NCBI GenBank assembly: GCA_903859155.1
Contig: CAIOLO010000049.1
Span: 4,609-68,608, forward strand
Reading direction: 5' to 3'
DNA length: 64,000 nt
From: an uncultured beta proteobacterium
Lineage (GTDB): Bacteria > Pseudomonadota > Gammaproteobacteria > Burkholderiales > SG8-39
In this document: positions 14,932 to 61,313 of the stretch, in pieces
How the letters are laid out: every line of letters starts with the position of its first letter
Position numbering within the stretch: position 1 is the stretch's first letter
Translations under genes and position numbers: made by a program
The notes under the pieces: model-generated
What the model was told of the DNA's origin: nothing
Database searches by the model: none
What the model saw: the letters and a program-made list of their open reading frames with translations, nothing else

Positions 14932-14968
14932 CCCCCGGCAAACCGCCAACCAACGAGGAAGCATTGCA

Positions 14969-20235: not shown

Positions 20236-20251
20236 CCCGGGAAGTTGGCGA

Positions 20252-20281: not shown

Positions 20282-20625
20282 CTGAGCGCAGCAGAATCCT
20301 GCCGCGCGCCGGCCGGGGAATTGAACAGGTTCCGGCAGCCCGGCAGATTGCGCCAACGGACAAATTCAGATGTGATCGCCAGTGGTTGCGCGCGAGGAGT
20401 CGTTTGGTCTGAGCTGAAGGCCGCGCTCGCAGCGCTATATTCCCGGTTCTTGATATGCGTCAATTCACCGTCAATAAGACAGCGTCACCATGACGGACGG
20501 GGTTGTGCGCGCTGCGGCGGCCTGGAGTTTGTCGTGGCCTCGCCCGACTTCCGGCCAAGCGGTGAGTCTGATGATCCGCTGCTGCCGCGCAATTGACTTG
20601 AAATCCACATGGAAAGGTCGCTCAG

Positions 20626-21633: not shown

Positions 21634-21712
21634 TTGCGGCCGGCTGTTGCGGCAAGGTGTTTCGGTATCGGCGGTTATTGCAGGCAGAACAATTGATGCA
21701 TAAGGAGCGAGC

Positions 21713-30575: not shown

Positions 30576-32255
30576 TTGAACATACTGACTTCAACCGAGC
30601 CCCACGGCAGCAGCTGGTGGAGTCCGAATGGTTCATTGCCGATCGCCGATGAACCGGGTTTGAATCGTGCCATTGCCACATTGCACCAGCCGGTGCTTCT
30701 GGTCCGGAAAAAGGGCATTTTGGCGGTGGCCCGCGGCGGCAACCTCGAATTCGGCCCCCAGGCCGGCGTGGAGGGAGGATATCCGGTTGCCGCTTTTGCG
30801 CCGGCATTGCGAGTGGAGCATCTGGGAGACAGCAGTTTCTGCGCGGATCACGGCCTTCGTTATGCCTATGTGGCCGGTGCGATGGCCAATGGCATTGCCT
30901 CGACGCAACTGGTCGAGGCAATGGGCCGAGCGGGCATGCTCGGTTTTTTCGGCGCGGCCGGCCTCAGTCTTGAGCGAGTCGAGGCGGCGATCGAGAAAAT
31001 TTCCCTGTCGATACCGGAGTTGCCCTATGGATTCAACCTGATCCACAGCCCCAATGAACCGGAACTGGAAGCGGGCCTGGTGGATCTCTATTTGCGGCGT
31101 GGCATCCGCCTGGTGGAGGCCTCGGCCTATCTGCGGCTCACGCTGCCGCTGGTGCGCTATCGGGTCAGCGGCATCGGACGCGATGCGCACGGGCGGGTGA
31201 TTGCGCCAAACCGTGTCATTGCCAAAGTTTCCCGTGTCGAAGTGGCCTCGCAATTTTTTTCCCCGCCACCGGCAAAGTTTCTGGCCGAACTGGTGCGCAG
31301 CGGCGATATCACCGAGGAACAGGCGGCGCTTGCGGCGGAAATTCCGATGGCTCAGGACCTCACCGGGGAGGCCGATTCCGGTGGCCATACCGACAACCGC
31401 CCTCTGGTCACGTTGCTGCCCACAATGCTGGCTTTGCGCGACCGGATGCAGAGCAAACACGGTTATGCGCAGCCGTTGCGGGTGGGGGCGGCCGGAGGAT
31501 TGTCCACTCCGGCGGCGCTTGCGGCCGCCTTTTCGATGGGGGCGGCCTACGTCCTCACCGGTTCGGTGAACCAGGCCTGTGTCGAATCGGGAAGCTGCGA
31601 CGCGGTGCGGGTGATGTTGGCGCAGGCGGAGCAGGCGGACATCGCCATGGCGCCGGCGGCGGACATGTTCGAGATGGGGGTGCGCGTACAGGTGCTCAAG
31701 CGCGGCACCATGTTCCCCATGCGGGCGGCCAAGCTGTATGATCTTTACCGGACGCACGGGGGGCTGGAAAATCTGCCAGAAGCGGACAAAACTTTCGTCG
31801 AAAAGCAGCTCTTGCGTGCCACAATCGAGGAAGCATGGCGCAGCACCAGGGAATTTTTCATGCAGCGCGATCCCCGACAGGTCGAACGCGCCGAACGTGA
31901 GCCGAAACACCGGATGGCGCTGGTTTTTCGCAGCTACCTGGGGTTGAGTTCGCGCTGGGCCAATGGTGGTGATGCATCGCGGGCGATGGATTACCAGATC
32001 TGGTGCGGGCCTGCGATGGGTGCGTTTAACGAATGGACGCGCGGGACCTTCCTGGAAAAGCCGGAAAACCGGCGCGTGGTGCTGGTCGGGCAGAATCTTC
32101 TTTATGGCGCGGCAATGCAGTTGCGCCGGCAGTGTTTGCGCGTACAAGGGATACAATTGCCGGCGCACGTCCCGGAGGGGGGGGTAACGGAGGGCGGTCC
32201 TCTGGAATCGCAGGCATTGCGTGAAGTATTGAACCCAGAAGTTTTGAATTCATAA
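30576..32255 (+). CDS. pfaD: PfaD-family enoyl reductase (FMN, nitronate-monooxygenase-like) of a PUFA-synthase-type system
   Basis: LGDSSFCADHGLRYAYVAGAMANGIASTQLVEAMGRAGMLGFFGAAGL..YGFNLIHSPNEPELE..EADSGGHTDNRPL..AAGGLSTPAALAAAFSMGAAYVLTGSVNQ..APAADMFEMGVRVQVLKRGTMF is a near-diagnostic PfaD signature. There is no in-frame ATG, so TTG 30576 is proposed, with AAGG 7-10 nt upstream. The ORF frame is open from 30006. Confidence 0.85.
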   Translation: MNILTSTEPHGSSWWSPNGSLPIADEPGLNRAIATLHQPVLLVRKKGILAVARGGNLEFGPQAGVEGGYPVAAFAPALRVEHLGDSSFCADHGLRYAYVAGAMANGIASTQLVEAMGRAGMLGFFGAAGLSLERVEAAIEKISLSIPELPYGFNLIHSPNEPELEAGLVDLYLRRGIRLVEASAYLRLTLPLVRYRVSGIGRDAHGRVIAPNRVIAKVSRVEVASQFFSPPPAKFLAELVRSGDITEEQAALAAEIPMAQDLTGEADSGGHTDNRPLVTLLPTMLALRDRMQSKHGYAQPLRVGAAGGLSTPAALAAAFSMGAAYVLTGSVNQACVESGSCDAVRVMLAQAEQADIAMAPAADMFEMGVRVQVLKRGTMFPMRAAKLYDLYRTHGGLENLPEADKTFVEKQLLRATIEEAWRSTREFFMQRDPRQVERAEREPKHRMALVFRSYLGLSSRWANGGDASRAMDYQIWCGPAMGAFNEWTRGTFLEKPENRRVVLVGQNLLYGAAMQLRRQCLRVQGIQLPAHVPEGGVTEGGPLESQALREVLNPEVLNS

Positions 32256-32265
32256 TCAACGAGCC

Positions 32266-35200
32266 ATGAGCAATCAGTCCTGTCCCCTGGCCATTGTCGG
32301 CATGAGTTGTCTGTTTCCCAAAGCAGACGACCTGCAGGCCTATTGGGCGAATATCAAGAACGGCGTGGATGCGATCACGCCGATACCGCTTGGTTCGCAC
32401 TGGAACGCCGCCGATTACTTCGACGCGGACCCGAAAACCCCAGACCATACCTACGCGCAACGCGGTGGTTTTCTCGCGCCGGTGACCTTCAACCCGATGG
32501 AATTCGGCATGGCGCCCAAGGACATCGAGGCAACCGACACCACGCAGCTTCTGAGCCTTATCGCGGCGCAGCGGGCTTTGGTGGATGCCGGATATGCCGC
32601 CGGCAGCAGCCCCGGGCGCGAGTTCGACCGTGACCGCACCAGTGTCATTCTCGGTGTCACCGGGGCCCTGGAGCTGGTGATACCACTGGGCGCGCGCCTG
32701 GGTCATCCGCACTGGCGCAAAGCGCTGAAGGATGCCGGCGTCGACAGCGAGGTCGCCAAGGACGTGGTGCAGCGTATTTCGGATTCCTATGTCGGCTGGC
32801 AGGAGAATTCCTTTCCAGGCCTGCTTGGCAACGTCGCAGCCGGCCGCATTGCCAGCCGTCTTGACCTGGGGGGAACCAACTGCGTCGTCGATGCGGCCTG
32901 CGCGAGTTCGCTGGCGGCGATTCACCTCGCGGGCCTGGAACTGTCGGCGGGCCTTTCGGACATGGTCATCACCGGCGGCGTGGATACCTTCAACGATATC
33001 TTCATGTACATGTGCTTCAGCAAGACGCCGGCGCTCTCGCCGAGCGGCGACGCGAAGCCATTCGACCGCGATTGCGACGGTACCGTTCTGGGCGAAGGGC
33101 TGGGTGTACTGGTGCTCAAGCGCCTTGCCGACGCCGAGCGCGACGGCGACCGCATTTATGCCGTGCTCAAGGGCATGGGGTCCTCCAGCGATGGGCGCAG
33201 CAGTGCAATTTATGCGCCGCGCGCCGCCGGCCAGAAGCTTGCCCTGCAGCGCGCTTACGTGGCCGCCGGCGTGACCCCGGAGACGATCGGACTGCTCGAA
33301 GGCCATGGCACCGGCACCAAAGTCGGCGATGCGACCGAACTGTCCTCCCTGACGGAGGTTTTCCAGGCGACCCAGAAACAGGGCACCTGGTGTGCGCTTG
33401 GGTCGGTCAAGTCGCAGATCGGGCACACCAAGGCGGCGGCGGGCGTGGCCGGCATTATCAAGGCTGCGATGGCGTTGCATCAAAAGGTCCTCCCCCCGAC
33501 CATCAAGGTCAAACAACCGCTGGATGGGGCTGCGCCGGGGCTGTCGCCTTTCTACGTCAACACCCGCAAGCGCCCCTGGTTGCCAAGTCCGACGCACCCG
33601 CGGCGCGCCGGCATCAGCGCGCTGGGTTTTGGTGGAACCAATTTCCATTGTGTGCTGGAGGAGCACGGCGCGGCGAAGCCTTGCGTGGACTGGGACGGCG
33701 ATGTCGAGATCCTCGCTTTGGGCAGCGAGAACATCGGCGAACTGCAGGCGCAATTGACCGCGCACCGCACGGACTGCTCCTGGACGGCGTTCCGGCGCGT
33801 GGCGCATGAGTCACGCCGCCAGTTCCGGCACAGCGCCGGCTGCCGCCTGTTGATAGTGGCGACCGAGCAGTCCGACCGTGCGGGTCTCAGGGATGCCGCG
33901 CTGAAAATGCTGGAGAAAAACCCCGGTAAGAGTTCATGGGTATCGCCCCTGGGTATTGCCTTCGGCTCCGGGCAAACGCATGGCAAACTCGGCGCGCTGT
34001 TTCCCGGTCAAGGTTCGCAGTACGTGGGCATGTTGCGTGATCTTGCCTGCCAGTTCCCCGACATGATGGATGAACTGGTCCGGGCTGACGCCGTTTTCGC
34101 GGGGGAACCTTTCCGCCTGGGCGCGCGGCGCCTGAGCGACTACATCTATCCCCAGCCGGCTTTTTCCGAGGAGGCGCTTCTGCACCAGGAAGAGGCATTG
34201 AAGTCAACCGATGTCGCCCAACCGGCCATGGGTGCGGTATGCCTGGGTGCGTTCAATGTTCTGGGCCATTTCGGCGTGTTCGTGGACGCCGCCTGCGGAC
34301 ACAGTTACGGCGAACTGCTCGCGCTTTGTGCGGCAGAGCGCTTAACACCGGAAGTCCTGCATCAGTTGTCCAGCGTGCGCGGCCGGTTGATGGCCAGCGG
34401 CGATGGCGACCGTGGCGGGATGCTGGCCGTCCAGGCGGATGAGAAAACGGTGCAGGCATTCCTGCGCGAGGAAAATGGCGATCTGGTCATTGCGAACCGC
34501 AACTCGCCCGAGCAAACCGTATTGGCGGGCCCCGCGGATCAGATAAAGCGCGCGGCCGGCGAACTGACCAGGCGTTCCCTGCGCTCCCGCGTGCTGCAGG
34601 TGTCGGCCGCATTCCACAGCGCCCTGGTTGCCGACGCGCGCGCTCCGTTCGCCGCGGCGCTCGGGGCGGTTGCGTTTGCCAAGGGCAGCATGCCCGTTTA
34701 TGCGAATTCCACCGGCGGCTTGTATCCGGAGTCGGCTACCGAAGCGCGCGACCTGCTGGCCAATCAGATTGTGAGGCCGGTCAATTTCATGCAGCAGATC
34801 CAGGCAATGCATGCTGCCGGCGTGCGCACTTTTGTCGAAATCGGACCCGGCCACGTGCTCGGTGATCTGGTGCAGTCCATTCTGCCCGGCGGCGATGTAC
34901 AGACCGTCGCGCTCGATGCCTCGAAAGGCGCCCGTTCCGGCATTTTCGATCTCGCGCTGTCACTTGGCAGGCTTGCGTCGCTGGGACATGAAGTGGATCT
35001 GTCGAAATGGGAGAAAGCACCGGTTCCGGCCGAGGCGCTCTCCAGCAAGCCGGCGTTTACCGTCGCCCTTTCCGGCGCGAACTATCGCGCGCCGCAGGCA
35101 CCCCGTGCGCCGGCGGCGCCCAGGCGCGCACCGGTCATGGCCACCGAAACCGCTGCCCGAGCGGCGGCGCCATTTAACTTTCAGTCGCAAGGCGCTGCCG

Positions 35201-38200
35201 CACCGATGACACACGCCCCCGTCCCTGCCTTCGCGTTCAAAGCGGATGATCTGTCCGCCACCGACGTCCCCGCGGCATTGCAGGCTGCGCAGGAGGGCAT
35301 ACTCGCGCTGCAGCGCCTCCAGGAACAGACCGCGCAGCTTCACAAGCAGTTTCTCGAAGGGCAGGAATCCGCGCGACGCGCCATACAGTCGCTGCTCAGC
35401 CTGCGTAGCGGCGCACCGGTCCAACAATCTGTTGGCGCACCGGTTGCGAATCCGGCGGCAGTGCCAGTGGCACCCGTCACGGTGGCGACGGGTCGCGCTG
35501 CGGCCGCCGCTAACCTGTCCCCTGGGCGTCAGGCCGCAAGTCAGGCGCCCGCGACGCAGGCTGTTCCTGTCCCCGATCGTGCGCTGCACGAACGCACCGT
35601 GCTCGAAGTGGTGGCGGAAAAAACCGGCTATCCGGTCGAGATGCTGAACCTCGGCATGGGCATGGATGCGGATCTCGGCATTGATTCCATCAAGCGCGTT
35701 GAAATCATGGCGGCGCTGCGCACTCGCCTGCCTGCCGCACCCGAAATAAAACCGGAGCATCTGGGGACATTGCAGACGCTCGAGCAGGTGGTTGCTTTTC
35801 TGGCGGCGGGGGCAGCCGCATCCGGTGCTGTCGTCATTGCCGGCGTTGCGGCCGCTCCGCTGTCCGGCGCGGCGCCTCAGGGCGGCGGCCACATCACCGC
35901 AGTATTGCTCGAAGTGGTGGCGGAAAAAACCGGCTATCCGGTCGAGATGCTGGATCTGGGCATGGGCATGGATGCGGACCTGGGCATCGACTCCATCAAG
36001 CGCGTCGAGATCATGGCGGCATTGCGGGCCAGACTTCCCGGCTCGCCGGAAATCAGGCCTGAGCACCTGGGCACGCTGCAGACCTTGCAGCAGATAGTGG
36101 ATTTTCTGGGGGGCGGCGCGGAAATCCCGACGGCATCGGTAAATGCGAAAGCAGACGCGGGTGCGGCGGATCCGGCCCGCATCAGCGAAGTCCTGCTCGC
36201 CGTGGTTGCCGACAAGACCGGTTATCCGGTCGAGATGCTGAACCTGGACATGGGGCTGGATGCGGACCTGGGCATTGACTCCATCAAGCGCGTCGAGATC
36301 ATGGCTGCACTGCGCGCGCAACTCCCTGGTTCGCCTGAAATCAGGCCGGAACATCTGGGTACCCTGCAAACGCTGCGACAGATCGTCGAGTTTCTCGGGA
36401 CGCAAGGCGGCCCGGTGGCGGCGATTGACACCGGCGCACCGGAATCCATGGCGGTCGTCGATGTGGAGACGGCAACGCAAATACCGCGGCTGGATGCGAT
36501 GCGGCAGGGGGTTCGCCCGGCAGAAATCAAGAATGGCGAGCAGCGGGCGACGCTTGCGCTTGCGCCTGGTGCGCACGTCTGGCTGGTTGGCGACGACTCG
36601 GATCTCGCGCGGCATATCGAGGAGCGACTCCAGGCGAGTCGCCTGCATGTTCATCGCGGCGACCTCAATACGAAGTTCGTTGCCAAAGGTTCGGCTTCGC
36701 CCGCCGCGCTCATCCTGCTGACACCCGAGGTCGTCGAGGACAACTTTCTCAAGCGTGCTTTCCGCCTGATCCAGCTGGCGGGACCGTCTCTGCGCAAAGC
36801 GGGCGGGGCCGACACGGCAATACTCCTTACGGTGTCACGGCTCGACGGTGCCTTTGGATTCGGCGGCGCGGGGCCCATCGGCAACCCGGTCAGCGGCGGC
36901 CTGGCCGGCTTGTTGAAGACCGCGCGTCGCGAATGGCCCGAGGTTCACTGCAAGGCGCTTGATCTGAATACGGGATCGTTGCCCGCCGATGAAACCGCGG
37001 CGCAGATTGTCGAGGAAATGTTCCGTGTGGGTCCTGTCGAGGTGGGGCTGTCAGGACGCTCACGCGTGACGCTTGCAGTTGATTTTGCGCCGCTGGCGCC
37101 GGATGCGGGCAAGGGTTTGCCCCTGCCTTTGGGCGAGAACGATGTGATCGTCGTCTCCGGCGGAGCGCGCGGGGTCACCGGCGACGCGGCGTTGGCGTTT
37201 GCGCAGACATTCCGTTCCACGCTGGTGCTGCTGGGTCGCAGCCAGCTGGCCGAAAGCGAGCCCGGCTGGTTGCAGGGCATGAATAGCGAAGCAGAAATCA
37301 AGAAAGCGCTGTTCTCCAGGCTGCCGGCGGGGAGTCCGCCGAGCACCGTCGAGGCCAACTATCGCCAGTTGATCGCGCAGCGCGAAATCCGCGCACAACT
37401 TGCGCGCCTTGGCGCCGCCGGCGCGCGCGCCGTCTATTGTTGTGTGGATGTGCGAGACGGCGCCGCGGTGACGCGGGCGCTCGATGACGTTCGCCAGCGA
37501 TATGGCGCGATTGGCGGCCTGGTGCACGGTGCTGGCGTGCTTGCCGACCGCCGTATCGAGGACAAGACCGAGGATCAATTCGATGCCGTCTACGGCACGA
37601 AAGTGACCGGACTGCAGAATCTGCTTGGTGCGCTGGCAAGCGAGAAACTCAAAGTCATTGCCTTGTTTTCCTCCTATACCGGTCGTTTTGGCCGTATCGG
37701 GCAGGTGGATTACGCGGCGGCCAACGAGGTGCTCAACAAGATCGCCCAGCAGGAATCGCGCCGCCGTCCGGACTGCCGTGTCGTTTCGGTCAACTGGGGG
37801 CCGTGGAACGGCGGCATGGTGACGCCGGGACTGCGCAGGATATTCGAACAGGAAGGCGTGGGACTGATCGAGCCCGCTGACGGCGCAGCTTTTCTGATGC
37901 GCGAAATCTGCGCCGCCGCCAAGGGCGACGTCGAGGTGCTGGCGCTGGCGCCGGCGGCGCAAAAGGCGCACGCCCCGGAGAAAATTGCCATTGCCAGTGC
38001 GGCAACCAGCATCGCCTTCGAGCGCGAGGTCAGCGTCAAGGCCTTGCCGTGTCTGGAATCCCATGTATTCAACGGCCGTGCGGTATTGCCGGCGGCGCTG
38101 ATGGTCGAGTGGCTCGCGCAAGCCGCCCTGCACGGCAATCCGGGCATGCGCTTTCACGGCCTGGACGATTTCAAGGTGCTCAAGGGGGTGGTGCTCGATG

Positions 38201-38856
38201 CGGACCAGTCGGTGACGGTCAGCCTGCTCACCGGCGAGGGAACGACCCGCGACAACCTGCATGTCCTGCCGGTGCGCATGATCAGCCACTCTGGCGGTCG
38301 CGAGATCATGCACGCGCAAACCGACGTTCTGCTCACCGAGGAAAAGCTTCCCGAGGCGCCCGCCGCAGAGCTGGTCGACATTTCGGGAGGGGCAATCGCC
38401 GATGCCTATTCGCTGGGGGTGTTGTTTCACGGCGCGGCGCTGCACGGCATTGAGTGTGTCGAGGTATGCGCCGAGCGGGGTGTGGCAGCGCTGGTCAAAG
38501 CGGCTTCCGCGCCGATAAAGTGGATGCGCTATCCGCTGCGCGGCAGCTGGATCGCCGATCCGCTCGCGCTGGACAGCGCGTTCCAGATGATGATTCTCTG
38601 GAGTGCGGCGCATCGCGGCGGGCCCTCCTTGCCCAGCGCCCTGGCGCGCTACCGACAATTCGTCGGCGCGTTTCCGAAAGGCGGTTGTCGCGCGGTGATC
38701 GCGGTGGCCATCGGCATCAGCGCCATTGCCGTGGCAACCATCCAGTTTCTGGACCGGCAGGGAAATCTGCTCGCGTCAGCGGAGGGATGCGAGTTTGTAG
38801 TCGACGCAGCCCTGCGCGACGCCTTTCGCTTGAACCGGCTGAAGCTTGAAACGTGA
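32266..38856 (+). CDS. pfaA: PfaA-like multidomain synthase: KS - malonyl/acyl transferase - 3x ACP - KR - PKS-type DH
   Basis: KS: [19 protein letters not shown] (Cys codon 32899), HGTGT, [27 protein letters not shown] (Ser codon 34303). Three ACPs with [15 protein letters not shown] (Ser codons 35686, 35992, 36280). KR: [33 protein letters not shown] (HxxxGxxxxP, His codon 38062). Confidence 0.92.
   Translation: [2196 protein letters not shown]
35590..36396 (+). repeat. Three tandem, highly similar ACP-encoding DNA repeats (periods 306 and 288 nt) inside the PfaA-like gene
   Basis: GGCTATCCGGTCGAGATGCTG..GATTCCATCAAGCGCGT(T/C)GA(A/G)ATCATGGC recurs three times. The protein repeats are [38 protein letters not shown].., separated by Ala/Gly/Pro linkers. 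Confidence 0.9.
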
Positions 38857-41800: not shown

Positions 41801-44800
41801 CTGTCCGCAGCGAATCCCGGCGCGCTTCTCGAGGCGTTGGACCGGCTCGACCGATTCACCCGAGCGGCCGGCAATGCGCCGGTGCAGCAGATTGCGCGCC
41901 AATGGTGGCGAGCGCATCAAGGCGAGCAACCCGGTCCGTACCGGCTGGCGCTGCTCGCGCGCGACACCTCGCAACTGGCGCGATTGACGCAGCGGGCTGC
42001 CGCGGGCGCTGCGCCAGAAGCCAATCGCAATGGCGACGACCGCGAGCGGATCTTCGTCGGCACGCAACCGGCGGCCGGGCATACGGGCCGGATCGCTTTT
42101 GTCTTTCCCGGGTCTGGCAATCAGTTCGAGGACATGGGCCTGGGCCTGGCCATGCAATGGCCGCAGATCCTGCGCGCACAGGATCTGGAAAACGGGCGAC
42201 TGGCCAGCCAGATGCATATAGACCATTTCTGGAATGGTCCGCTGGCGAAGGATGTGCTCGCGGATCACCGCGCCTTGATATGCGGCCAGGTGGCGTTCGG
42301 CACCATGGTGGCCGATCTGGCGGTGTGTTTCGGCCTCAAGCCGGCCGCTGCTATCGGCTACAGCCTGGGCGAGTCGACCGCACTGTTCGCCATGCGGGCC
42401 TGGCGGCAGCGCGATGCAATGCTCGAGCGGTTGAGCGCTTCATCGCTGTTCGCGCAGGATCTGTCGGGTCAGCCGGAGGTGTTGCGGGGCATCTGGAAGG
42501 TTCAGGAGGGGCAGCCGGTCGAATGGGTGGCCGGGGTGGCGGGCAGTTCCGTCGAATCCGTGCGCGCGGTCATCGCCGGGAAAAAACGCGTGTACGTGCT
42601 CATCGTAAACAGCCCGGACGAATGTGTTATAGGCGGCGATCGCGCGGTGGTCGAGGAGACCATCGCGGCATTGGGCTGCCACTGGTTTGCGTTGCAGGGC
42701 GTGAGCACGGTGCATTGCGAACTGGCGCACCCGGTGCGCAAGGCCTACCGGGAGTTGCACCGCTTCGACACCACGCCGCCCGCCGAGGTGGAGTTTTACA
42801 GTTGCGGCTGGGGCCGTGCCTACACCCCCGACCGCGAAACGGCCGCCGAAGCGATCGAGGCCCAGGCCATGGGCACGATCGATTTTCCGCGGGTGATTCG
42901 CGCGGCCTATGCTGCCGGGGTACAGACGTTCGTGGAAATCGGACCGGGCAACTCCTGCAGTCGCATGATTGGCAAGATCCTCAACGGTCGCCCGTATATT
43001 GCGCGATCGCTGGCGCATGCCGGGCAGGAACCGGTGACGCATTTTCTGCGCACCATCGGCCAGCTTTATGCCGAAAATGTTCCGGTAAGCCTGGAATTTC
43101 TCTACGCTGGCGCGGACGCTACCGAGCAGCACGCAGGACCCGAAGCCGCGGCGGCGGGTAAGCGCGTGACGGTGTCGATCAGCGGCGCGCCATTCTCGGC
43201 GCCCGATCTGCCGCGCGCCGGATCCGCTGCAGCCGCCGCGTTTGCGGCGCCTGCGGCACCGGGACGCGTGGACACTTCAGTCACAGCAAGTGCCATCCAT
43301 CCCCGGAGCCTGCCTGAGGATCTGCCGGCGGCGGATTTTTACGATGCGGTGCTCAGGACCTCCGTAGAAGCGGAACAGGCGACGCTCGAGGCACACCAGG
43401 CTTATCTCAGATTTTCGCAGGGTATCGCCGAGACCTTGGGGCAGGCCGTCGCGGCCCGGGTCGGCCTGCTCAACGCGGCGGCCCGTTCCGGCCTGCTGAT
43501 TGCCGAATCAAATACCGCGTCGCCCGGGGAGGCGTTTCGCGATTCCGCAATTGCGGCGATCCGGCCGCCAGCGCCCCTGCAGGAGCCCTCCGCAGACGGC
43601 ATTCCGCGCGCGCTCGATCGCGCCGCCTGCCTGGAGTTCGGACGGGGTCTTGTCGGTCGCGTGCTCGGCCCCCGTTTTGCGGAGGCGGACGCCTACCCGA
43701 CGCGCGTGCGCCTGCCGGATGAACCCTTGATGCTGGTGGACCGGATTCTGCAGATCGAGGGCGAAGCGCTGTCCCTCTCGCACGGCCGCGTGGTCACCGA
43801 GCACGACATACACCGGGGCGCGTGGTATCTCGACTGCGGACGCATTCCCACCTGCATCGCCGTCGAGGCAGGCCAGGCGGATTTGTTCCTGTCAGGATAC
43901 CTCGGCATCGATTTTCAGACCCGCGGCCGCTCGATGTACCGGCTGCTCGACGCGAAGGTCTGTTTCCACCGCGGCTTGCCGGGAGCCGACGAGGTCATCC
44001 GTTACGACATCCGCATCGAACGCTTTTTCCGCCAGGGCGACACCTGGCTGTTCAAGTTTGCATTCGAAGCCACGGTCAACGGCGAACCCTTGCTCACCAT
44101 GACCGAAGGCTGCGCGGGTTTTTTCTCGCAGCAGGAACTGGCGGGGGGCAAGGGTATCGTACGCACGGCGCTGGATCTGAAACCGGTGGCGGGAAAGCGC
44201 GCCCCGGACTGGGAGCCGCTGGTCGCCATCGGTGTCGAAAGCTATACGCAGGAGCAACTCGATGCCTTGCGCGCAGGCGATCTTGCGGCCTGTTTCGGCC
44301 AGGCCTTCGCGGGGCTGCCGCTGACCGATCCGGTCACGCTGCCCGGCGGGCGCATGAAGCTCGTGCACCGCATCGCCCATCTCGATCCGCAGGGCGGGCG
44401 CTTTGGACTGGGCCTGGTGCGCGGCGAAGCGGACATCCACGCCGATGACTGGTTCCTCACCTGCCACTTCGTGGACGACCGCGTCATGCCGGGCACCCTG
44501 ATGTTCGAGTGCTGCCTGCATACTCTGCGCGTGTACCTGTTGCGGCTGGGCTGGATTGCCGCGCAGGGCAGTGTCGTTCTCGAACCGGTGCCCGGCGTCG
44601 CCAGTCAGTTGAAATGCCGCGGCCAGGTGCTCGACACCACGAAACTGGTGACCTATGAAATTTCGATCAAGGAAATCGGCTATCGGCCGGAACCTTATGT
44701 GATCGCCGACGCATTGATGTTTGCCGATGGCAAGCCGATTGTCGAAATTGGCAACATGAGCCTGCGCTATGCCGGTGTGACACGGGAGGCGATTCGTTCG

Positions 44801-45928
44801 ATCTGGGCGTCTGCCGCAGCGCCTGCGGCGCCTGCGCCGGCGAAGCCCGTGATTTTCAGCTGCGAAAAAATTCTCGCTTTCGCGATCGGCAAACCGTCGG
44901 AAGCTTTCGGCGAGCCCTACAGGATATTTGACGAGGGCCGCATCATTGCGCGCCTGCCGGGGCCGCCTTTCCAGTTCATGGATCGTGTCACCGGGATTCA
45001 GGCCGAGCCGTGGAAGATCCTGCCGGGGGGCGCCATCGAGGCCCAGTACGATGTGCCGCCCGAGGCCTGGTATTTCGCCGATAACCGCCAGGGCGACATG
45101 CCGTTTGCAGTGCTGCTTGAGATCGCGCTGCAACCCTGTGGCTGGCTCGCGGCCTACATGGGATCGGCCTTGACCAGTGACGTGGATGTGTCGTTTCGCA
45201 ACCTGGGCGGTGGCGCCATGCAGCTCGCGCCGGTGTTCCCCGGCAGCGGCACGCTCACCATACGCGTCAAGCTCACGCGCGCGTCCAGTTCGGCGGGCAT
45301 GATCATCCAGTTCTTCGACTATGAGGTGCACGCGGGACGCACGCTGGTCTACCGGGGAGACACCTATTTCGGCTTCTTCCCGAAAATCGCATTGGCAAAG
45401 CAGGAGGGTCTGAAAGATGCCAGGCGGCATCAGCCGTCCGCGCAGGAACTATCGCGCAGTCGCCGCCTGGATTTTCCTGACACAGCGCCGTTTCCCCATG
45501 GCCGCCTTCGGATGCTCGATCGCATCGAATGCTGGGTTGCGGACGGCGGTCCGCATGCAATGGGATACATCCGTGCAACACGGCGCGTGGTGCCCGACGA
45601 ATGGTTTTTCAAGGCGCATTTTTTTCAGGATCCGGTGGTGCCCGGATCGCTGGGCCTGGAGTCGTTCCTGCAATTGCTGAAATTCATGTCGGTGGAACGC
45701 TGGGGGCATGCAGACGGCGTGCGCCACGAGACCGTGGCCATGGACGAGCGCCACGAATGGACCTACCGCGGGCAGGTCATACCGGGCGATGGTTTGGTCA
45801 CCGTCGAGGCCGTGGTGACCGGAATCGACGAGGCCCGCCGCCTGCTGCGCGCCGACGGTTATCTCTCGGTTGATGGCCGGGTGATATATGCGATGAAGGA
45901 TTTCACCGTGCGGCAGGTCAGTTCATGA
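38846..45928 (+). CDS. pfaC: PfaC-like synthase with an embedded acyltransferase: KS - CLF (KS-beta) - AT - 2x (pseudo-DH + FabA-type DH)
   Basis: KS: [23 protein letters not shown] (Cys codon 39476), HATGT. The second KS-like module lacks the Cys ([11 protein letters not shown]), so it is a CLF. [22 protein letters not shown] (Ser codon 42362). FabA-like motifs: [21 protein letters not shown] (His codon 44465) and [21 protein letters not shown] (His codon 45617). TTG start overlaps the pfaA stop by 11 nt. Confidence 0.9.
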   Translation: [2360 protein letters not shown]

Positions 45929-45948
45929 TTGCCGGGCGCTGAGTTTCC

Positions 45949-47034
45949 ATGGCACCGAAATACAGCCGTGTCTACCTGAGCGCACTGGGCTACGAGCTCG
46001 GGCCGCAGATCGTGACCACGGCCGAACTGGAGGCGCGTCTGGCGCCGCTGTACCGGCAGTTGAATCTGCAGCCGGGCCAGTTGGAGGCATGGACCGGGAT
46101 TGTCGAGCGTCGCTGGTGGGAGCAGGACGCCCGGCTGTCGGCCGGCGCGACTGCCGCGGCGCGCAAGGCGCTGGCGAAGACCTCCGTGCGGGCCGCCGAC
46201 CTCGGTGTGGTGATTTACGCCGGGGTCTGCCGCGAGAATTTTGAGCCGGCCACTGCCTGTGCCGTCGCCGACGCGCTTGGCGTGCGCGGCGGCGTGTCCG
46301 TCTATGACCTGAGCAATGCCTGCCTTGGCGTGCTCAACGGCATGCTCGATATCGCCAATCGCATCGAACTCGGACAAATCCGCGCGGGTCTGGTCGTGTC
46401 GTGTGAATCGGCGCGCGAAATCAATGAAATCGTCATGGCGCGCCTGCTCGATGAGCTGCGCAACGAAAAGCCGGCCGGCACCGGCATGGAAAGTTTTGCC
46501 GAGGCGCTGGCGACCTTTACCGGCGGTTCGGGTGCGGTGGCGATGTTGTTGACCGACGGATCCTTTGAAGGCAGCAGAGGCCATCGCCTTTGCGGCGCGG
46601 TATCGCAGGTTGCACCGGAGCACCATCGCCTGTGCCGCTGGGGCCTGGAGCCGGCCGGCGAACCGGTCGGCGCACAGCGGCAGGTGCAGTACATGGCAAC
46701 GGATTCGGTCGCGGTGCTCAAGCACGGGGTGCAACTGGGCCAGCAGACCTGGCAGATATTTCAGACGGCCATGGGCTGGACGCCGGCACAGATCGACCGC
46801 GTCATCTGCCATCAGGTCGGCAGCGGACACCAGGATGCGATATTGAAATCGTTGCAGATACCCAGGGACAAGGACTATACGAGCTATCGCTTCCTGGGCA
46901 ATATGGGTACGGCGGCACTGCCGGTTACTGCCGCCATCGCGGAAGAAAGAGGCGTTCTCAAGGCCGGTCAGAAGATCGGGTTTCTCGGCATAGGCAGCGG
47001 CCTCACCTGCCTGATGATGGGGCTCGAATGGTGA
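45949..47034 (+). CDS. oleA: OleA-type thiolase (head-to-head Claisen condensing enzyme; FabH-like fold)
   Basis: Aligns by eye along its length with Xanthomonas OleA as I remember it: GIVERRWW, NFEPATA (the OleA-specific Glu position), LSNACLGVLNGM (Cys codon 46321), VICHQVGSGH, LGNMGTAALPV, IGFLGIGSGLTCLMMGLEW. Genomic context with oleBCD supports the call. Confidence 0.8.
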   Translation: MAPKYSRVYLSALGYELGPQIVTTAELEARLAPLYRQLNLQPGQLEAWTGIVERRWWEQDARLSAGATAAARKALAKTSVRAADLGVVIYAGVCRENFEPATACAVADALGVRGGVSVYDLSNACLGVLNGMLDIANRIELGQIRAGLVVSCESAREINEIVMARLLDELRNEKPAGTGMESFAEALATFTGGSGAVAMLLTDGSFEGSRGHRLCGAVSQVAPEHHRLCRWGLEPAGEPVGAQRQVQYMATDSVAVLKHGVQLGQQTWQIFQTAMGWTPAQIDRVICHQVGSGHQDAILKSLQIPRDKDYTSYRFLGNMGTAALPVTAAIAEERGVLKAGQKIGFLGIGSGLTCLMMGLEW

Positions 47035-47945
47035 GCAGTGTCGTCGGCCGCGCGCCGGATTTCGATCGCGAACTCTACCCTTTCACCGGGTCGTGGCAGG
47101 AGGTGAACGGCTTCAAGATGCACGTCCTTGACGAAGGGCAGGGAGAGACCGTGCTGATGCTTCACGGCAATCCCACCTGGTCGTTTTTTTTCCGCAACCT
47201 GGTGCTCGGGTTGCGCGGCACCCACCGCGTGATCGTGCCCGACCATATCGGCTGCGGGCTGTCGGACAAGCCCGACGAGGAATCCTACGACTACACTCTC
47301 AGCCGGCGTGTCGACGACCTTGCCGAGCTCATCGAAAAACTCCGGGTCCGCGGGCGCATCACATTGCTGCTGCACGACTGGGGCGGCATGATCGGCATGG
47401 CCTATGCCGCCCGCTACCCGGAAAAAATCAACCGGCTGATTCTGCTGAATACAGCGGCGTTCCACCTGCCCAAACCGAAGCGCCTGCCTTTGTCGTTATG
47501 GCTGTGCCGCAAGACGCCGCTGGGTGAATTGATCATCCGCGACACCGGCCTGTTCATCAGTGTGCTGGCACGCTGGGCCGTCTGCCGCCCGATGGAGCAG
47601 CGCGTACGCGAAGCCTACCTTTGGCCCTACCGGCTGCCGGAAGATCGCACCGGTTTGCTGCATTTCGTGCTGGACATTCCCTTGAAACCCGGTGAACGCG
47701 GCTACCAGCTGGTGAGCGACGTGCAGGCGCAATTGCCGGACTTCAACGCGATTCCGGTCCTGATACTGTGGGGTGAAAAGGACTTTGTCTTCGATCACCA
47801 TTTCCTGCGCGAGTGGCAAAGATTGCTGCCTGCCGCCGAGGTGCACCGCTTTCCCAACGCGGGCCACTATGTTCTGGAGGATGCCGGCGAGCAGATCCTG
47901 CCGCTGATTCAAGGCTTCCTGGAACGCTCTCCGGACCATGCCTGA
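47028..47945 (+). CDS. oleB: OleB-type alpha/beta hydrolase (beta-lactone decarboxylase; haloalkane-dehalogenase-like)
   Basis: FKMHVLDEGQGETVLMLHGNPTWSFFFR, nucleophile-elbow LLLHDWGGMIG (Asp codon 47376), C-terminal NAGHYVLED. ATG 47028 overlaps the oleA stop by 7 nt. The ORF frame is open from 46590. Confidence 0.8.
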   Translation: MVSSVVGRAPDFDRELYPFTGSWQEVNGFKMHVLDEGQGETVLMLHGNPTWSFFFRNLVLGLRGTHRVIVPDHIGCGLSDKPDEESYDYTLSRRVDDLAELIEKLRVRGRITLLLHDWGGMIGMAYAARYPEKINRLILLNTAAFHLPKPKRLPLSLWLCRKTPLGELIIRDTGLFISVLARWAVCRPMEQRVREAYLWPYRLPEDRTGLLHFVLDIPLKPGERGYQLVSDVQAQLPDFNAIPVLILWGEKDFVFDHHFLREWQRLLPAAEVHRFPNAGHYVLEDAGEQILPLIQGFLERSPDHA

Positions 47946-49635
47946 CACGCCAGGCAAAGTCCGGAACATCGCCGTGCATCTGGCGGAGATGGCGAAACTC
48001 CAGCCCTCGCGTCCGGCAGTCATCTGCGCGTGCGGCCGGGAATCGCAGGGCGCGGTGGCCTATGAGCACCTGAGCTTCAGCGAACTGGAGGAGCAGAGCA
48101 ACGCACTCGCTGCCACCCTCGAGCACATTGGAATCCGGCGCGGCGTGCGAACCGCGTTGATGGTGCCGCCCGGCCTGGATTTTTTCACGCTGACCTTTGC
48201 CTTGTTCAAGATCGGTGCGGTGCCGGTGCTGATCGATCCGGGCATCGGCCTTGCCAACCTTCGCGGCTGTCTGGAGCACGCGCAGCCCGAGGCATTCATC
48301 GGGATTTCCAAGGCGCATGCGGCGCGCGTTCTGTTTGGCTGGGCGCGTTCGACTGTGCGCATCAAGGTCACGGTGGGGACGAAATGGTTCTGGGGCGGGG
48401 ACACGTTAGCTGGCATGCGCGAGCGCCTGGCAGGCGACCTGTCCGCCGTCCAGGGATTCAGCGCGATCCAGCCCGAGAGCGGTGAGACCGCGGCCATCCT
48501 GTTTACCAGCGGCAGCACCGGCGCGCCGAAAGGGGCTGTCTATACGCACGAAATGTTCGGCGCCCAGGTGGAGCATATCCGCCGGCTGTATGGCATCAAG
48601 CCGGGTGAGACGGATCTGGCGACCTTTCCGCTGTTCGCGCTGTTCGGTCCGGCGCTGGGCATGACCGCGGTGGTTCCGGAGATGGACGCTTCGCGGCCGG
48701 CGAGCGTGGATCCGGAGAACATCGTCGGCGCGATCCGCAAATTCGGCATCACCAACATGTTCGGTTCTCCGGCGCTCATCAACCGCGTCGGGCGCCATGG
48801 CGAGAAGCACGGGATCCGGCTGCCGACGCTGCAGCGTGTCATCAGCGCGGGCGCGCCGGTGCCGGCCAGGGTGCTGGCGCGCTTTGCCGCAATGCTGTCC
48901 CCCGGCGTGCAGATATTCACCCCTTACGGGGCGACCGAGTGCCTGCCGGTGGCCTCCATCGGCAGCAATGTGATTCTCGGTGAGACCCGCCATCGCACCG
49001 ATGAAGGCGCAGGGGTTTGCGTCGGTTATCCGGTGCCGGGGCTGGTGGTCAAGGTCATGCAGATCAGCGACGCGCCGGTGGCAGGCTGGAGCGAGTCGCT
49101 GGAACTGCCGGCCGGGGAAATCGGTGAAATCGCGGTGAAGGCGGCGCACGCCTCGCGGAGCTATTTCGATCTTCCCGCGGCGACGGCACTGGCCAAGATC
49201 GAGGATGCGGCCGGCGGCGGTTTCTACCACCGCATGGGCGACGTCGGTTATTTCGATCCGCGTGGCCGCTTGTGGTTTTGCGGGCGCAAGGCGCATCGCG
49301 TCGTCACGCCGCAGAAGACGCTTTTTTCGATTCCCTGCGAGGGGGTGTTCAACGCGCATCCGGAGGTCTATCGCACCGCCCTGGTCGGTGTCGGAATAAA
49401 CGGCGTCATCGAACCGGTGTTGTGCGTGGAACTGGATCCCGCTTCGGGGGGCGATACGGAAGCGGTTCGCGAAGCATTGCGCCGGCGCGGCGCGGCGCAT
49501 GCGCACACCAGGGATATTGCGATATTTCTTTTCCATCCCGGGTTTCCGGTGGATGTGCGGCATAACGCGAAGATCTTCCGCGAAAAGCTCGCGGTATGGG
49601 CAGCGGCCAAACTGGCGGCAAGGAAACTGCCTTGA
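47938..49635 (+). CDS. oleC: OleC-type AMP-dependent synthetase (beta-lactone synthetase)
   Basis: ILFTSGSTGAPKGAVYTH (AMP-binding P-loop), TFPLFALFGPALGMTAVVPEMDASRPASVDP and FGSPALINRV..RVISAGAPVP match the OleC-specific stretch around the acyl pocket; YHRMGDVGYFD..LWFCGRK. Overlaps the oleB stop by 8 nt. Confidence 0.8.
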   Translation: MPDTPGKVRNIAVHLAEMAKLQPSRPAVICACGRESQGAVAYEHLSFSELEEQSNALAATLEHIGIRRGVRTALMVPPGLDFFTLTFALFKIGAVPVLIDPGIGLANLRGCLEHAQPEAFIGISKAHAARVLFGWARSTVRIKVTVGTKWFWGGDTLAGMRERLAGDLSAVQGFSAIQPESGETAAILFTSGSTGAPKGAVYTHEMFGAQVEHIRRLYGIKPGETDLATFPLFALFGPALGMTAVVPEMDASRPASVDPENIVGAIRKFGITNMFGSPALINRVGRHGEKHGIRLPTLQRVISAGAPVPARVLARFAAMLSPGVQIFTPYGATECLPVASIGSNVILGETRHRTDEGAGVCVGYPVPGLVVKVMQISDAPVAGWSESLELPAGEIGEIAVKAAHASRSYFDLPAATALAKIEDAAGGGFYHRMGDVGYFDPRGRLWFCGRKAHRVVTPQKTLFSIPCEGVFNAHPEVYRTALVGVGINGVIEPVLCVELDPASGGDTEAVREALRRRGAAHAHTRDIAIFLFHPGFPVDVRHNAKIFREKLAVWAAAKLAARKLP

Positions 49636-50639
49636 AGGCGCTGGTCACCGGCGGCGGCGGGTTTCTCGGCCAGGCGATCGTGCGCGGACTGTTGGGCGCC
49701 GGCGCCCAGGTGCGCAGCTTCTCGCGCAGCGGACACGCGGCCCTGCAGGCGCTCGGCGTCGAGCAGGTGCAGGGCGACCTTGCCGATGCCGGCGCGATTG
49801 CCGCGGCGGTGCGTGGCAGCGATACGGTTTTTCACGTCGCCGCCATGCCGGGCATCTGGGGCGACTATGCGGACTACCACCGGGCCAATGTCACCGGAAC
49901 CCGGAATGTCATTGCTGCGTGCCGCCAGCATGCGGTGCAGCGCCTGGTCTACACCAGTTCACCCAGCGTGGTCTTCGACGGGCGCGACATGCAGGGCGTC
50001 GACGAGTCGCTGCCCTATCCGCGGCACTATGAAGCCCATTACCCGCGCACCAAGGCGCTGGCCGAGCAGGCGGTGCTGGCGGCGAACGACGCGCAACTGG
50101 CCACGGTGAGCCTGCGCCCGCACCTGATCTGGGGGGCGGGGGATAACCACCTGCTTCCCCGCCTGGTCGCGCGCGCCAGGGCGGGCCAGTTGCGCCGCAT
50201 CGGGGCGCGGCAGAATCTCATCGACACCATTCATGTGGAGAATGCGGCCGATGCGCACCTGCTCGCGGCCGAGCGTCTTTCACCGGGATCGGTGGTCGCC
50301 GGCAGGGTCTATTTCATCTCGCAGGGCGAGCCGGTGCCGTTGTGGGACATGGTCAACCGGCTGCTGCACGCGGCAGGCGCGCCGCCGGTCACCCGGTCGA
50401 TACCCTTGTGGCTGGCCCTGGGGCTGGCGAGCGGGTTTGAAGCGGCGCACCGCCTCTCCCGCAATCCCCGCGAGCCGCGCCTGACGCGCTTTGTGGTGCG
50501 CGAGCTGTCCACTGCGCACTGGTTCGACATTGCGGCCGCGCGCCGCGACCTGGGCTATGCGCCGCGCATCTCCATCGCCGCAGGGCTGGAGCAACTGCGG
50601 ATTGCCCTGCAAACCGCGAATGCCGGCGGCCGCGCATGA
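49596..50639 (+). CDS. oleD: OleD-type NAD(P)H-dependent reductase (3-beta-HSD / extended SDR family)
   Basis: ALVTGGGGFLGQAIVRGL Rossmann motif, VFHVAA, YTSSPSVVF, YPRTKALAE (YxxxK). The start is either ATG 49596 (40-nt overlap with oleC) or TTG 49632 (TTGA overlap with the oleC stop). Confidence 0.8.
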   Translation: MGSGQTGGKETALKALVTGGGGFLGQAIVRGLLGAGAQVRSFSRSGHAALQALGVEQVQGDLADAGAIAAAVRGSDTVFHVAAMPGIWGDYADYHRANVTGTRNVIAACRQHAVQRLVYTSSPSVVFDGRDMQGVDESLPYPRHYEAHYPRTKALAEQAVLAANDAQLATVSLRPHLIWGAGDNHLLPRLVARARAGQLRRIGARQNLIDTIHVENAADAHLLAAERLSPGSVVAGRVYFISQGEPVPLWDMVNRLLHAAGAPPVTRSIPLWLALGLASGFEAAHRLSRNPREPRLTRFVVRELSTAHWFDIAAARRDLGYAPRISIAAGLEQLRIALQTANAGGRA

Positions 50640-51358
50640 ACCTGCAGGCACTCACCCTTCGGCTCGGCGATGAAGAGCGGCGCGCATTTTTTGCGGTGGT
50701 CGATGCCGTCGAGTTGCAGGCGAACGCGACGCGACCCGAAGCGTTTCTGAGCGATTTCGAACTGGCGCGCCTGGGCGCGTTGCAATTGCCGCCCAAGCGC
50801 CAGAGCTTTCTGCTGGGCCGTTTTGCGGCGAAGCAGGCGCTGGGCGCACTGCTTGCCGAACCCGATTTGCGCCGTATCGAAATCGGCACCGGCGCATTCG
50901 GACAGCCGCTGGTGAAGCATCCGCGCGCCGGGAATATCGAAGTGACGCTGAGTCATTCACACGGGCTGGCGGTTGCGCTCGCCTATCCGCGCGAGTGGCC
51001 GATGGGGGTGGACCTGGAAACCGTCTCGGTCGACGCGGCGGGCACGGTACTGGGAGAGTTGCAAATTTCAACCGCGGAAAAGGCATGGCTGGCGGCCGCA
51101 ACGGTTGGCCAAGCCAGCGCCTGCGGTGTTCTTTGGAGTGCCCGCGAGGCGCTCGGAAAATCGATGAAGATCGGCTTGAACTGCCCGTTGGGAATCCTCG
51201 CGCTCTCCCATCTCGAATCCGCAGGCACGGCATACTGGGAATGTCGCTACGCGAATTTTCCGCAGTCGCAGTGTCTGTCTCGGGCGACCGACGGTCGCAT
51301 CCTGTCGCTGGCAATGCCCATCGGGATCCGGCTGAGCGACTGGCCGCAATTGCGATAG
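50636..51358 (+). CDS. pfaE: Sfp-type 4'-phosphopantetheinyl transferase (PfaE-like)
   Basis: GQPLV..VTLSHSHGLAVAL, PMGVDLE, and LWSAREALGKSMK (W/FxxKE(A/S)xxK) are the three PPTase motifs. ATGA overlap with the oleD stop. Confidence 0.8.
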   Translation: MNLQALTLRLGDEERRAFFAVVDAVELQANATRPEAFLSDFELARLGALQLPPKRQSFLLGRFAAKQALGALLAEPDLRRIEIGTGAFGQPLVKHPRAGNIEVTLSHSHGLAVALAYPREWPMGVDLETVSVDAAGTVLGELQISTAEKAWLAAATVGQASACGVLWSAREALGKSMKIGLNCPLGILALSHLESAGTAYWECRYANFPQSQCLSRATDGRILSLAMPIGIRLSDWPQLR

Positions 51359-51952
51359 CGACGGAGGCTCGACTGGGAATTTTGGCCGCTGGCAAGCCGG
51401 CGATTCACCAGCAAGACGGCGGGAACGCCCAAACAGCTCAAAAAGCCACTCCGCAAGAACTCGGGTCCGCAGCCTCGTCTTGGGGAATTGAATCGGATTG
51501 ACGACAGTCAGTCGTCGGGGAGCCTCGCAGCGGACCAAAGATGGAAAAAAGTTAGAAGACGGTTGACTATGGTCAACAGTCGAAAACCAATCCATGTGTA
51601 GTTTGCCAGGATAAGCATCATCTCAAGAAAGTCGGAAAGCCAACTATGGCGACCGAGGCCGTTTTGGCGGCACCTAGTGTCTGCGTGGTTCTCGCAACCT
51701 TCAGCAGCAAGGCAATGACTGCTGCAATTCTCGGCAACTTAAGCTTGAGGCCAGCGGAAGAAATTGCTCCGAACAACGACTCCGGGAACAAGGCCTCCGA
51801 TCAGATTGCTGCCATTTCAATGTCTCAATGTCAGGGAATAATATCAGTGCATTGGCCGAGTGTCGAGGCTGGGCGCAGGATGACGTAATTGTCCTTGTGC
51901 GCGCAGTCGCGCCAGTCGGTTTGAGCCCATAGTCCAGTCCAGAGGATTAGCC

Positions 51953-53914: not shown

Positions 53915-53915
53915 A

Positions 53916-54431
53916 GTGAAGCGTATCCTGTTTTTCGGCGGACTCCTCGCGCTGTGCTTGAGCGTTGCGGCCAAAGACTTGTTCGCTGCCGACGAGGAGA
54001 CGGTAAAGACCGCCTACCTGTACAACTTTGCCAAGTTCGTTCAATGGCCGGATGAGCAGCGCCCTACGCTGCGGCTATGCGTCGTGGGCGATAACGTGCT
54101 GGGCAAGGCGCTCGACAGCTTGATTGGCAAGCCAGTGCGCAACATGCAGATCGACGTTCGTCATGCGATTGTGCTGCAGGATATTCCACAATGCGATCTG
54201 GTTTTCTTGCCGGCGGGCCAGGCACGCTCGCTGGAGCGGGTGCGTCAGATAGTGAATGGCTATCCCATCCTGATCGTGGCCGAAAGCACTGATGCCCTGC
54301 CCAAGGGCGCCATCGTGGCCATGATCCAGAGGGATAACCGCATCGTCTTCGAAGTCGATCTGACCACAGCCCGCCACCTCGGCTTGCAGGTCAGCGCCAA
54401 GTTGCTGCAACTGGCCCGAAAGGTGTACTGA
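53916..54431 (+). CDS. YfiR-family (DUF4154) periplasmic protein
   Basis: Signal peptide, then VKTAYLYNFAKFVQWPD..LRLCVVGDN..GYPILIVAES..IVFEVDLTTARHLGLQVSAKLLQLARKV matches the DUF4154/YfiR consensus. GTG start 1 nt after the receptor stop. Confidence 0.8.
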   Translation: MKRILFFGGLLALCLSVAAKDLFAADEETVKTAYLYNFAKFVQWPDEQRPTLRLCVVGDNVLGKALDSLIGKPVRNMQIDVRHAIVLQDIPQCDLVFLPAGQARSLERVRQIVNGYPILIVAESTDALPKGAIVAMIQRDNRIVFEVDLTTARHLGLQVSAKLLQLARKVY

Positions 54432-54432
54432 C

Positions 54433-60221: not shown

Positions 60222-60278
60222 AGGGAGAATTTGCCGCGGTGGGCTGATCAAGACGCTTGGCGTAAGGTTCGATCAATA

Positions 60279-61262: not shown

Positions 61263-61313
61263 TTGCCGAATGGCCGTAGACCAAAGAACGCGGCGACAAG
61301 ATGGAGGAGCCAG

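Follow-up and report, generated by a model that had tools for sequence, protein, structure and literature searches.

Organization of the gene cluster

The 64-kb stretch of DNA analysed here, referred to as the window, is part of contig CAIOLO010000049.1 of an uncultured betaproteobacterium and harbors on its plus strand eight consecutive co-directional genes that together span 20.8 kb (positions 30576–51358). According to profile searches and sequence motifs their order is pfaD-pfaA-pfaBC-oleA-oleB-oleC-oleD-PPTase, thus the genes of a Pfa-type synthase are followed by oleA, oleB, oleC and oleD, contiguous and in this order, and by the gene of a 4'-phosphopantetheinyl transferase (PPTase) (Table 1). 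All eight open reading frames (ORFs) show codon-position GC contents of the coding type, with 0.71–0.84 at the third (GC3) and 0.39–0.52 at the second position (GC2).

Each of the seven junctions is either a stop/start overlap or a gap of at most 20 nt. Gaps separate pfaD from pfaA (10 nt) and pfaBC from oleA (20 nt), while the TTG start of pfaBC (38846) overlaps the pfaA stop by 11 nt, oleB overlaps oleA by 7 nt (ATG 47028) or 4 nt (GTG 47031), oleC overlaps oleB by 8 nt, and oleD and the PPTase gene share an ATGA overlap of 4 nt. At the oleC/oleD junction the overlap amounts to 40 nt if oleD starts at ATG 49596 and to 4 nt if it starts at TTG 49632. The shorter overlap is probably the correct one, because TTG 49632 is preceded by the better ribosome-binding site (AAGGAA) and lies where the OleD model begins; the model alignment sets in at residue 14 as numbered from ATG 49596. 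The more likely OleD is therefore the 335-residue protein starting at TTG 49632. Eight ordered genes with such family memberships and overlaps cannot be attributed to chance.

Counts of terminator-like and promoter-like sites within the cluster are at or below the shuffled expectation, with none at the junctions, which lends weak support to a single transcript; the cluster would be read as one unit. Downstream of the PPTase gene follow about 600 nt of non-coding DNA with lower GC content and then the gene of a TonB-dependent receptor. The start and stop coordinates bear out the first-pass annotation of this DNA, made from the letters and ORF translations, in which eight co-directional genes with junctions between -40 and +20 nt had been described as one tightly coupled unit. 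Likewise, the families and domain orders it had proposed are supported by the profile searches, in which the matches extend over the full length, and by the motif checks described below.

Table 1. Position and family assignment of the eight cluster genes and of the upstream gene orfU. KS, ketosynthase; AT, acyltransferase; ACP, acyl carrier protein; KR, ketoreductase; DH, dehydratase; CLF, chain-length factor; ER, enoyl reductase; SDR, short-chain dehydrogenase/reductase.
Gene	Assignment	Coordinates	Strand	Length	Profile match
pfaD	PfaD-family ER	30576–32255	+	559 aa (TTG start)	TIGR02814, 651 bits (cut-off 449)
pfaA	KS-AT-ACPx3-KR-DH	32266–38856	+	2196 aa	TIGR02813, 1598 bits (cut-off 1010)
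pfaBC	Fusion, KS-CLF-AT-(FabA-type DH)x2	38846–45928	+	2360 aa (TTG start)	
oleA	Head-to-head Claisen condensing thiolase	45949–47034	+	361 aa	NF006720/PRK09258, 458 bits (cut-off 285)
oleB	Haloalkane-dehalogenase-like α/β hydrolase, β-lactone decarboxylase type	47028–47945	+	305 aa	Abhydrolase_1, 106 bits
oleC	AMP-dependent β-lactone synthetase type (ANL superfamily)	47938–49635	+	565 aa	NF006754, 750 bits (cut-off 478)
oleD	Extended-SDR 2-alkyl-3-oxoalkanoate reductase	49596–50639	+	347 aa from ATG 49596	NF042422, 429 bits
PPTase	PfaE-like Sfp-type 4'-phosphopantetheinyl transferase	50636–51358	+	240 aa	Pfam ACPS, 35.7 bits (cut-off 25)
orfU	Conserved hypothetical protein	28813–30528	+	571 aa	No Pfam/NCBIfam family; >2000 homologues at E<=1e-5

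The Pfa-type synthase and its phosphopantetheinyl transferase

The pfaD product matches, in addition to its family model, the Pfam domains NMO and FabD_helical_ins. In PfaA the Pfam domains KS, AT, three PP-binding domains, KR and PKS_DH_N (residues 1913–1990) are found. The KS motifs are intact (DAACAS at 209, HGTG at 347 and GHTKAAAG at 386), and the AT and KR motifs are represented by GHSYG at 678 and YAAAN at 1816, respectively. Three LGIDSI serine sites at 1137, 1239 and 1335 mark the ACP domains. No tandem DNA repeats were detected across the ACP region; in their DNA sequences the three ACPs have diverged from one another.

PfaBC comprises two ketoacyl-synt domains, an Acyl_transf_1 domain at residues 1085–1367 and FabA matches in four stretches, and the PfaB family model aligns to residues 1080–1420. 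The catalytic cysteine of its KS belongs to a DAACAS motif (position 208). An aspartate takes the place of this cysteine in the second KS-like domain, which is assigned as the CLF because of this replacement. The AT motif reads GYSLG (1171), the FabA active-site histidine motifs are located at 1874 and 2258, and solved FabA/DH structures in the PDB match this part of the protein. By domain and gene content, the pfa genes would fit the secondary lipid synthase that Shulse and Allen (2011) classed as Type I.

In the PPTase the motifs GVDLE and WSAREALGK are present; the 4PPT_N match, at 22.7 bits, stays below its cut-off, and the models for HetI, EntD and AcpT gave weak matches only. Profile searches matched no AGPAT or thioesterase domain in the cluster proteins, and among the scanned window ORFs of at least 97 residues no pfaT-type hot-dog thioesterase, AGPAT or acyl-ACP-releasing enzyme was found, in agreement with the first-pass annotation, to which no thioesterase or AGPAT domain had been visible. 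An acyl-CoA synthetase gene at 57487–59592 was discounted, as it lies 6 kb away on the opposite strand and is not conserved as a neighbor of the cluster in those related loci that were inspected.

The ole genes

OleA is clearly separated from the FabH enzymes. Whereas it reaches 458 bits with its own model, the FabH model TIGR00747 yields 82 bits only, and its best PDB matches are structures of Xanthomonas campestris OleA (3ROW, 3S21, 4KU5 and others), aligned end to end with E 1e-50, compared to E 1e-17 at best for FabH structures. Cys125 (NACL), Glu99 (FEP), the histidine of HQV and the asparagine of GNMG align with the catalytic residues of the X. campestris enzyme. The earlier assignment as an OleA-type thiolase, made from the glutamate and the cysteine, is thereby confirmed.

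The best NCBIfam matches of OleB are haloalkane dehalogenase-type models, the libraries containing no model specific for OleB. The nucleophile motif HDWGG, from which the first-pass annotation had recognized a DWGG hydrolase, is accompanied by a C-terminal histidine in GHY. By homology, OleB would act as the β-lactone decarboxylase. Among specific models, OleC is matched best by the olefin β-lactone synthetase models NF045785 (672 bits) and NF045786 (663 bits), although it stays below their genus-level cut-offs of 850 and 900, respectively. For OleD, the cut-off of both NF042422, its best match, and NF042423 is 580 bits and is likewise not reached; the latter model gives 394 bits and the next family, HpnA, 163 bits.

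Conservation of the arrangement in related loci

For comparison, one genome per species was considered, which provided 80 loci, all in metagenome-assembled genomes (MAGs), with OleA relatives at 51–83% identity; colinearity was judged by tblastn with the window proteins. The record labels of these loci name Betaproteobacteria/Burkholderiales, Verrucomicrobiota (Limisphaerales, Pedosphaera), Planctomycetota, Elusimicrobia, Desulfobacterales, Desulfuromonadales, Acidobacteriota, Gemmatimonadota and Gammaproteobacteria. Some records (L010, L014, L020, L024, L026, L030, L035, L037, L041, L050, L061, L068 and L079) are labelled Klebsiella, Enterobacteriaceae, Akkermansia muciniphila or Bordetella parapertussis. 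These organism labels look wrong, because the OleA sequences concerned group with those of environmental Verrucomicrobiota, Betaproteobacteria or Planctomycetota.

Of the 77 evaluable loci, 66 have the 3' end of pfaBC immediately upstream of oleA, and the intervening gap has a median of about 25 nt. Where the flanking sequence is sufficient, pfaA, pfaBC, oleA, oleB, oleC and oleD are colinear in almost all loci, and oleB directly follows oleA in nearly all of them. The same order is seen, by gene calls and Pfam domains, on three independent metagenome contigs (L001–L003). Given this colinearity in 66 of 77 loci, a fused pfa-ole operon is what members of this OleA clade normally have and not, as had been suggested from the window, an unusual arrangement. 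The lengths of the homologues vary between 2038 and 2196 residues for PfaA and between 2030 and 2360 residues for PfaBC. At the upstream end of the cluster, relative L086 encodes a PfaD homologue of 554 residues 10 nt ahead of pfaA, as in the window.

A PPTase gene follows oleD in most betaproteobacterial loci (47–64% identity), in several verrucomicrobial loci and on contig L003; on L001, L002 and L007 none was detected. On L001, a contig of the RIFCSPLOWO2_02_FULL_63_19 type, an insertion sequence element with HTH_Tnp_1 and rve transposase genes (15018–16162) lies after oleD, at the position taken by the PPTase gene in the window.

Exceptions to the fused arrangement are mainly labelled Desulfuromonadales and carry oleABCD without pfaBC within 9–10 kb upstream. 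The Desulfuromonadales-labelled loci L051, L054 and L056, as well as L053, L058 and L067, contain oleA and oleB, in most cases together with oleC/oleD, and no pfaBC in the 6–10 kb upstream. Hence the unlinked arrangement also occurs inside this OleA clade. The closest OleA sequences labelled Desulfuromonadales or Desulfobacterales are 59–61% identical to that of the window.

Host lineage and possible lateral transfer

The closest relatives of the cluster are located on MAG contigs labelled Betaproteobacteria/Burkholderiales, with 75–86% identity for OleA and 64–83% for the whole cluster. Furthermore, the window contains eight genes of TctC/Bug-family periplasmic receptors (13199–22684 and 60231–62874) amid aldolase and amidohydrolase genes. 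An expansion of this receptor family is typical of Burkholderiales, and the eight genes therefore support a betaproteobacterial host, as had been proposed at the outset. No description of a betaproteobacterial pfa-ole cluster was retrieved from the literature that could be searched, and surveys covering cultured genomes do not include this clade; within the Proteobacteria, ole genes have been listed in Gamma- and Deltaproteobacteria only (Surger et al. 2020, PMC7158056).

In a neighbor-joining tree of the OleA sequences of loci L004–L083 and of the window (midpoint rooted, without support values), the window falls inside a monophyletic betaproteobacterial clade that is nested among clades labelled Verrucomicrobiota. 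The OleA proteins of the betaproteobacterial and the Verrucomicrobiota-labelled groups are 65–75% identical. This topology hints at inter-phylum lateral transfer of the cassette. Tentatively, an uncultured, Burkholderiales-like betaproteobacterial clade that is abundant in metagenome assemblies may have acquired the entire pfa-ole-PPTase cassette from Verrucomicrobiota-like donors and may use it for a polyunsaturated hydrocarbon (PUHC) possibly unlike C31:9 (hentriacontanonaene); we consider this combination possible rather than probable. If it holds, the known range of such hydrocarbons would be extended by a further group, one that is widespread in the environment. Scans of the window for island boundaries with tRNA and Rfam models gave no matches.

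Proposed pathway and product

Given the observed gene content, gene order, overlaps, catalytic motifs, family membership and synteny, the operon very probably encodes a dedicated, self-contained pathway to a very-long-chain polyunsaturated olefin. The reaction sequence proposed here is modelled on the named families and on the precedents from Shewanella and Geobacter. The PPTase would convert the three ACP domains of PfaA to the holo form, whereupon the iterative synthase consisting of PfaA, PfaBC and the ER PfaD would assemble malonyl units into a polyunsaturated acyl-ACP of medium chain length; in known systems this acyl chain is 16:4n-3. OleA would then take two chains directly from the ACPs and join them head-to-head to a 2-alkyl-3-ketoacid, the keto group of which would be reduced by OleD. 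Subsequently, OleC would close the β-lactone at the expense of ATP and OleB would decarboxylate it to the cis-olefin. For the product itself we lean, with somewhat better than even confidence, towards C31:9. The product class, polyunsaturated hydrocarbons of very long chain, had been predicted in the first-pass annotation, and homology and synteny point in the same direction.

A direct transfer from the Pfa ACPs to OleA had also been put forward there, together with the remark that the hand-off was unexplained. The former agrees with published work, by which the latter had already been answered: expression of pfaA-E and oleA in Escherichia coli gives the 31:8 ketone even without FadD (Allemann et al. 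2019, PMC6463001), and OleA draws its substrates from the Pfa ACP domains with no need for an acyl-CoA synthetase, PfaT being an accessory thioesterase only (PMC6463001). As this hand-off already has experimental support in Shewanella-derived systems, the mechanistic weight of the present cluster is small. Regarding the source of the chains, the Type I pfa-like cluster has been proposed to supply the olefin precursor, as Geobacter bemidjiensis makes C31:9 (Shulse & Allen 2011, PMC3098273).

Several points weigh against this assignment. Chain length and unsaturation of the product cannot be read from a sequence, and transcription of the eight genes as one unit is only what we infer. OleC and OleD score below the genus-level equivalog cut-offs and are, by this measure, diverged from the Shewanella and Xanthomonas enzymes. 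The betaproteobacterial members of the clade, including the present organism, are known from sequence alone, and even in G. bemidjiensis the product is tied to the cluster by correlation, with "no direct evidence" (Yoshida et al. 2016, PMC4882568).

The pathway might operate as outlined and yield a polyolefin of another chain length or unsaturation, if the synthase with its three ACPs and fused AT hands a different intermediate to OleA. The similarity of OleA to the X. campestris structure, at only E 1e-50, the low OleC and OleD scores and the variable lengths of PfaA and PfaBC among homologues would be in line with such a product. Shewanella and Geobacter, however, are distant from each other, differ in their pfa-ole arrangement and nevertheless both make C31:9 (PMC3098273, PMC4882568), and a different olefin is considered less likely. 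A β-lactone or a ketone as the end product is very unlikely: OleA expressed alone gives ketones and the function of OleB rests on homology, but the full oleBCD set is present and conserved in almost all related loci, and the aspartate of the OleB HDWGG motif as well as the histidine are intact.

Two further explanations concern the relation between the synthase and the ole genes. The synthase could serve mainly to produce a polyunsaturated fatty acid (PUFA) for membrane lipids, with the ole genes skimming off an intermediate as in Shewanella species producing eicosapentaenoic acid (EPA). Such is the situation of marine Gammaproteobacteria (PMC6463001), and a stand-alone product of pfa homologues was left possible by Shulse and Allen (PMC3098273). 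The lack of an AGPAT domain, a thioesterase domain or a pfaT-like gene in the cluster and in the scanned ORFs of the window argues against it, as do the translational coupling and the conserved adjacency of pfaBC and oleA, which point to one pathway; a membrane-lipid function is accordingly judged unlikely. Least probable is a functionally meaningless adjacency, with OleABCD condensing acyl-CoAs derived from fatty acid synthase of type II (FAS II) as in Xanthomonas and Micrococcus. Although OleA of other lineages does use such substrates (PMC6463001), the adjacency is conserved with gaps of about 25 nt across record labels naming at least five phyla, the PPTase gene, needed only by the Pfa ACPs, is situated 3' of the ole genes, and in S. 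oneidensis the chain derived from Pfa is the sole substrate of OleA (PMC6463001). The dedicated pathway to a polyunsaturated olefin, fed directly by the Pfa synthase, is therefore preferred.

Neighboring genes

Upstream of pfaD and separated from it by a spacer of 47 nt lies orfU. It was tried as a ninth gene of the cluster and rejected, since its homologues sit in unrelated contexts. Synteny with pfa and ole is confined to close relatives, and in L086, the one close relative with an orfU homologue near pfaD, three unrelated small genes intervene, encoding MazE-like, DUF6036 and DUF4926 proteins (7076–8617; toxin-antitoxin-like). Synteny gives no reason to tie orfU to the pfa-ole pathway, and the construct start at 28813 suggested in the first-pass annotation would merely add an unrelated neighboring gene. 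The orfU protein family is widely conserved with a length of 555–570 residues. In a confident AlphaFold model computed with 27 homologues (mean pLDDT 90.4, pTM 0.90), a central α/β core is flanked by helical regions at both termini. Almost all Foldseek matches of this core are GNAT acyltransferases; each match is weak by itself (best E 9e-3; TM, target-normalised, about 0.45–0.5), but they are consistent with each other. Judging from the model, orfU may represent an uncharacterised family of acyl-CoA-dependent acyltransferases.

Divergent from orfU, a 508-residue ORF with coding-type GC3 is found on the minus strand (27083–28609) for which no Pfam or NCBIfam match was obtained even at E<=10. 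In L086, the interval from PPDK to the orfU homologue contains neither this ORF nor the MFS transporter gene located at 25785–26978 in the window. Farther upstream, the minus-strand gene at 8683–11652 encodes a protein of 989 residues that has a CHAT (caspase-like) domain at its C-terminus, while the N-terminal part of about 640 residues matches no family. The region 190–8686 harbors a glycan-biosynthesis group composed of a DegT-type aminotransferase, an LPG_synthase_TM-like membrane protein, a methyltransferase, a formyltransferase and three GT4-type glycosyltransferases. On the other side of the cluster (51359–57126), the non-coding stretch is followed by what looks like a signalling unit of its own, made up of the genes of the TonB-dependent receptor, a YfiR/HmsC-like DUF4154 protein and a CHASE8-HAMP-PAS hybrid histidine kinase.

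Comparison with known systems

The catalytic residues of OleA are shared with the OleABCD system of X. campestris; OleC and OleD reach 663 and 429 bits with the Xanthomonas models, below the respective cut-offs. The Xanthomonas system, however, employs FAS II-derived acyl-CoAs and is devoid of pfa genes. Shewanella oneidensis and S. pealeana possess the same two enzyme systems as the window, and their OleA intercepts chains bound to the Pfa ACPs (PMC6463001). In Shewanella, however, pfaEABCD is unlinked to oleABCD, PfaB and PfaC are separate proteins, the pfa genes run in the order pfaA-D, and the system includes the accessory thioesterase PfaT and yields EPA as a co-product. In the window, pfa and ole genes are joined in a single coupled unit, and no pfaT was detected among the scanned ORFs. 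Adjacent pfa and ole genes occur in Photobacterium profundum SS9 as well, but there they are organized in two operons with pfaT in between and no PUHC was detected (PMC6463001), in contrast to the overlapping genes of the window, where no thioesterase was found.

The closest published counterpart is the cluster of the C31:9 producer G. bemidjiensis Bem, in which pfaD, pfaA, pfaB, pfaC, oleA, oleB, oleC, oleD and pfaE follow one another (PMC4882568). Judged by the published gene order, both clusters begin with the ER gene, end with the PPTase gene and contain the pfaBC fusion (PMC4882568, PMC3098273), G. bemidjiensis being an anaerobic deltaproteobacterium and the host of the window belonging to an uncultured, Burkholderiales-like betaproteobacterial lineage. 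The Type I pfa-like cluster with its pfaBC fusion was defined in Geobacter, Pelobacter, Desulfuromonas and Gemmata, and its frequent linkage to ole genes was noted in 2011 (PMC3098273). Consequently, the novelty that had been attributed to the pfa-ole fusion does not hold, a cluster of identical gene order being on record in G. bemidjiensis. Cluster type, gene order and probable product are already published, and the present locus is only modestly new, by its host lineage and by the nesting of its OleA among verrucomicrobial sequences. Its value for distribution and ecology is modest, the compact eight-gene cassette being the arrangement that is standard for this OleA clade in uncultured bacteria of many phyla. 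As a self-sufficient unit of 20.8 kb with its own PPTase, it is nonetheless a convenient candidate for heterologous production of PUHCs, with the tandem cluster of G. bemidjiensis as its nearest described relative in gene order.

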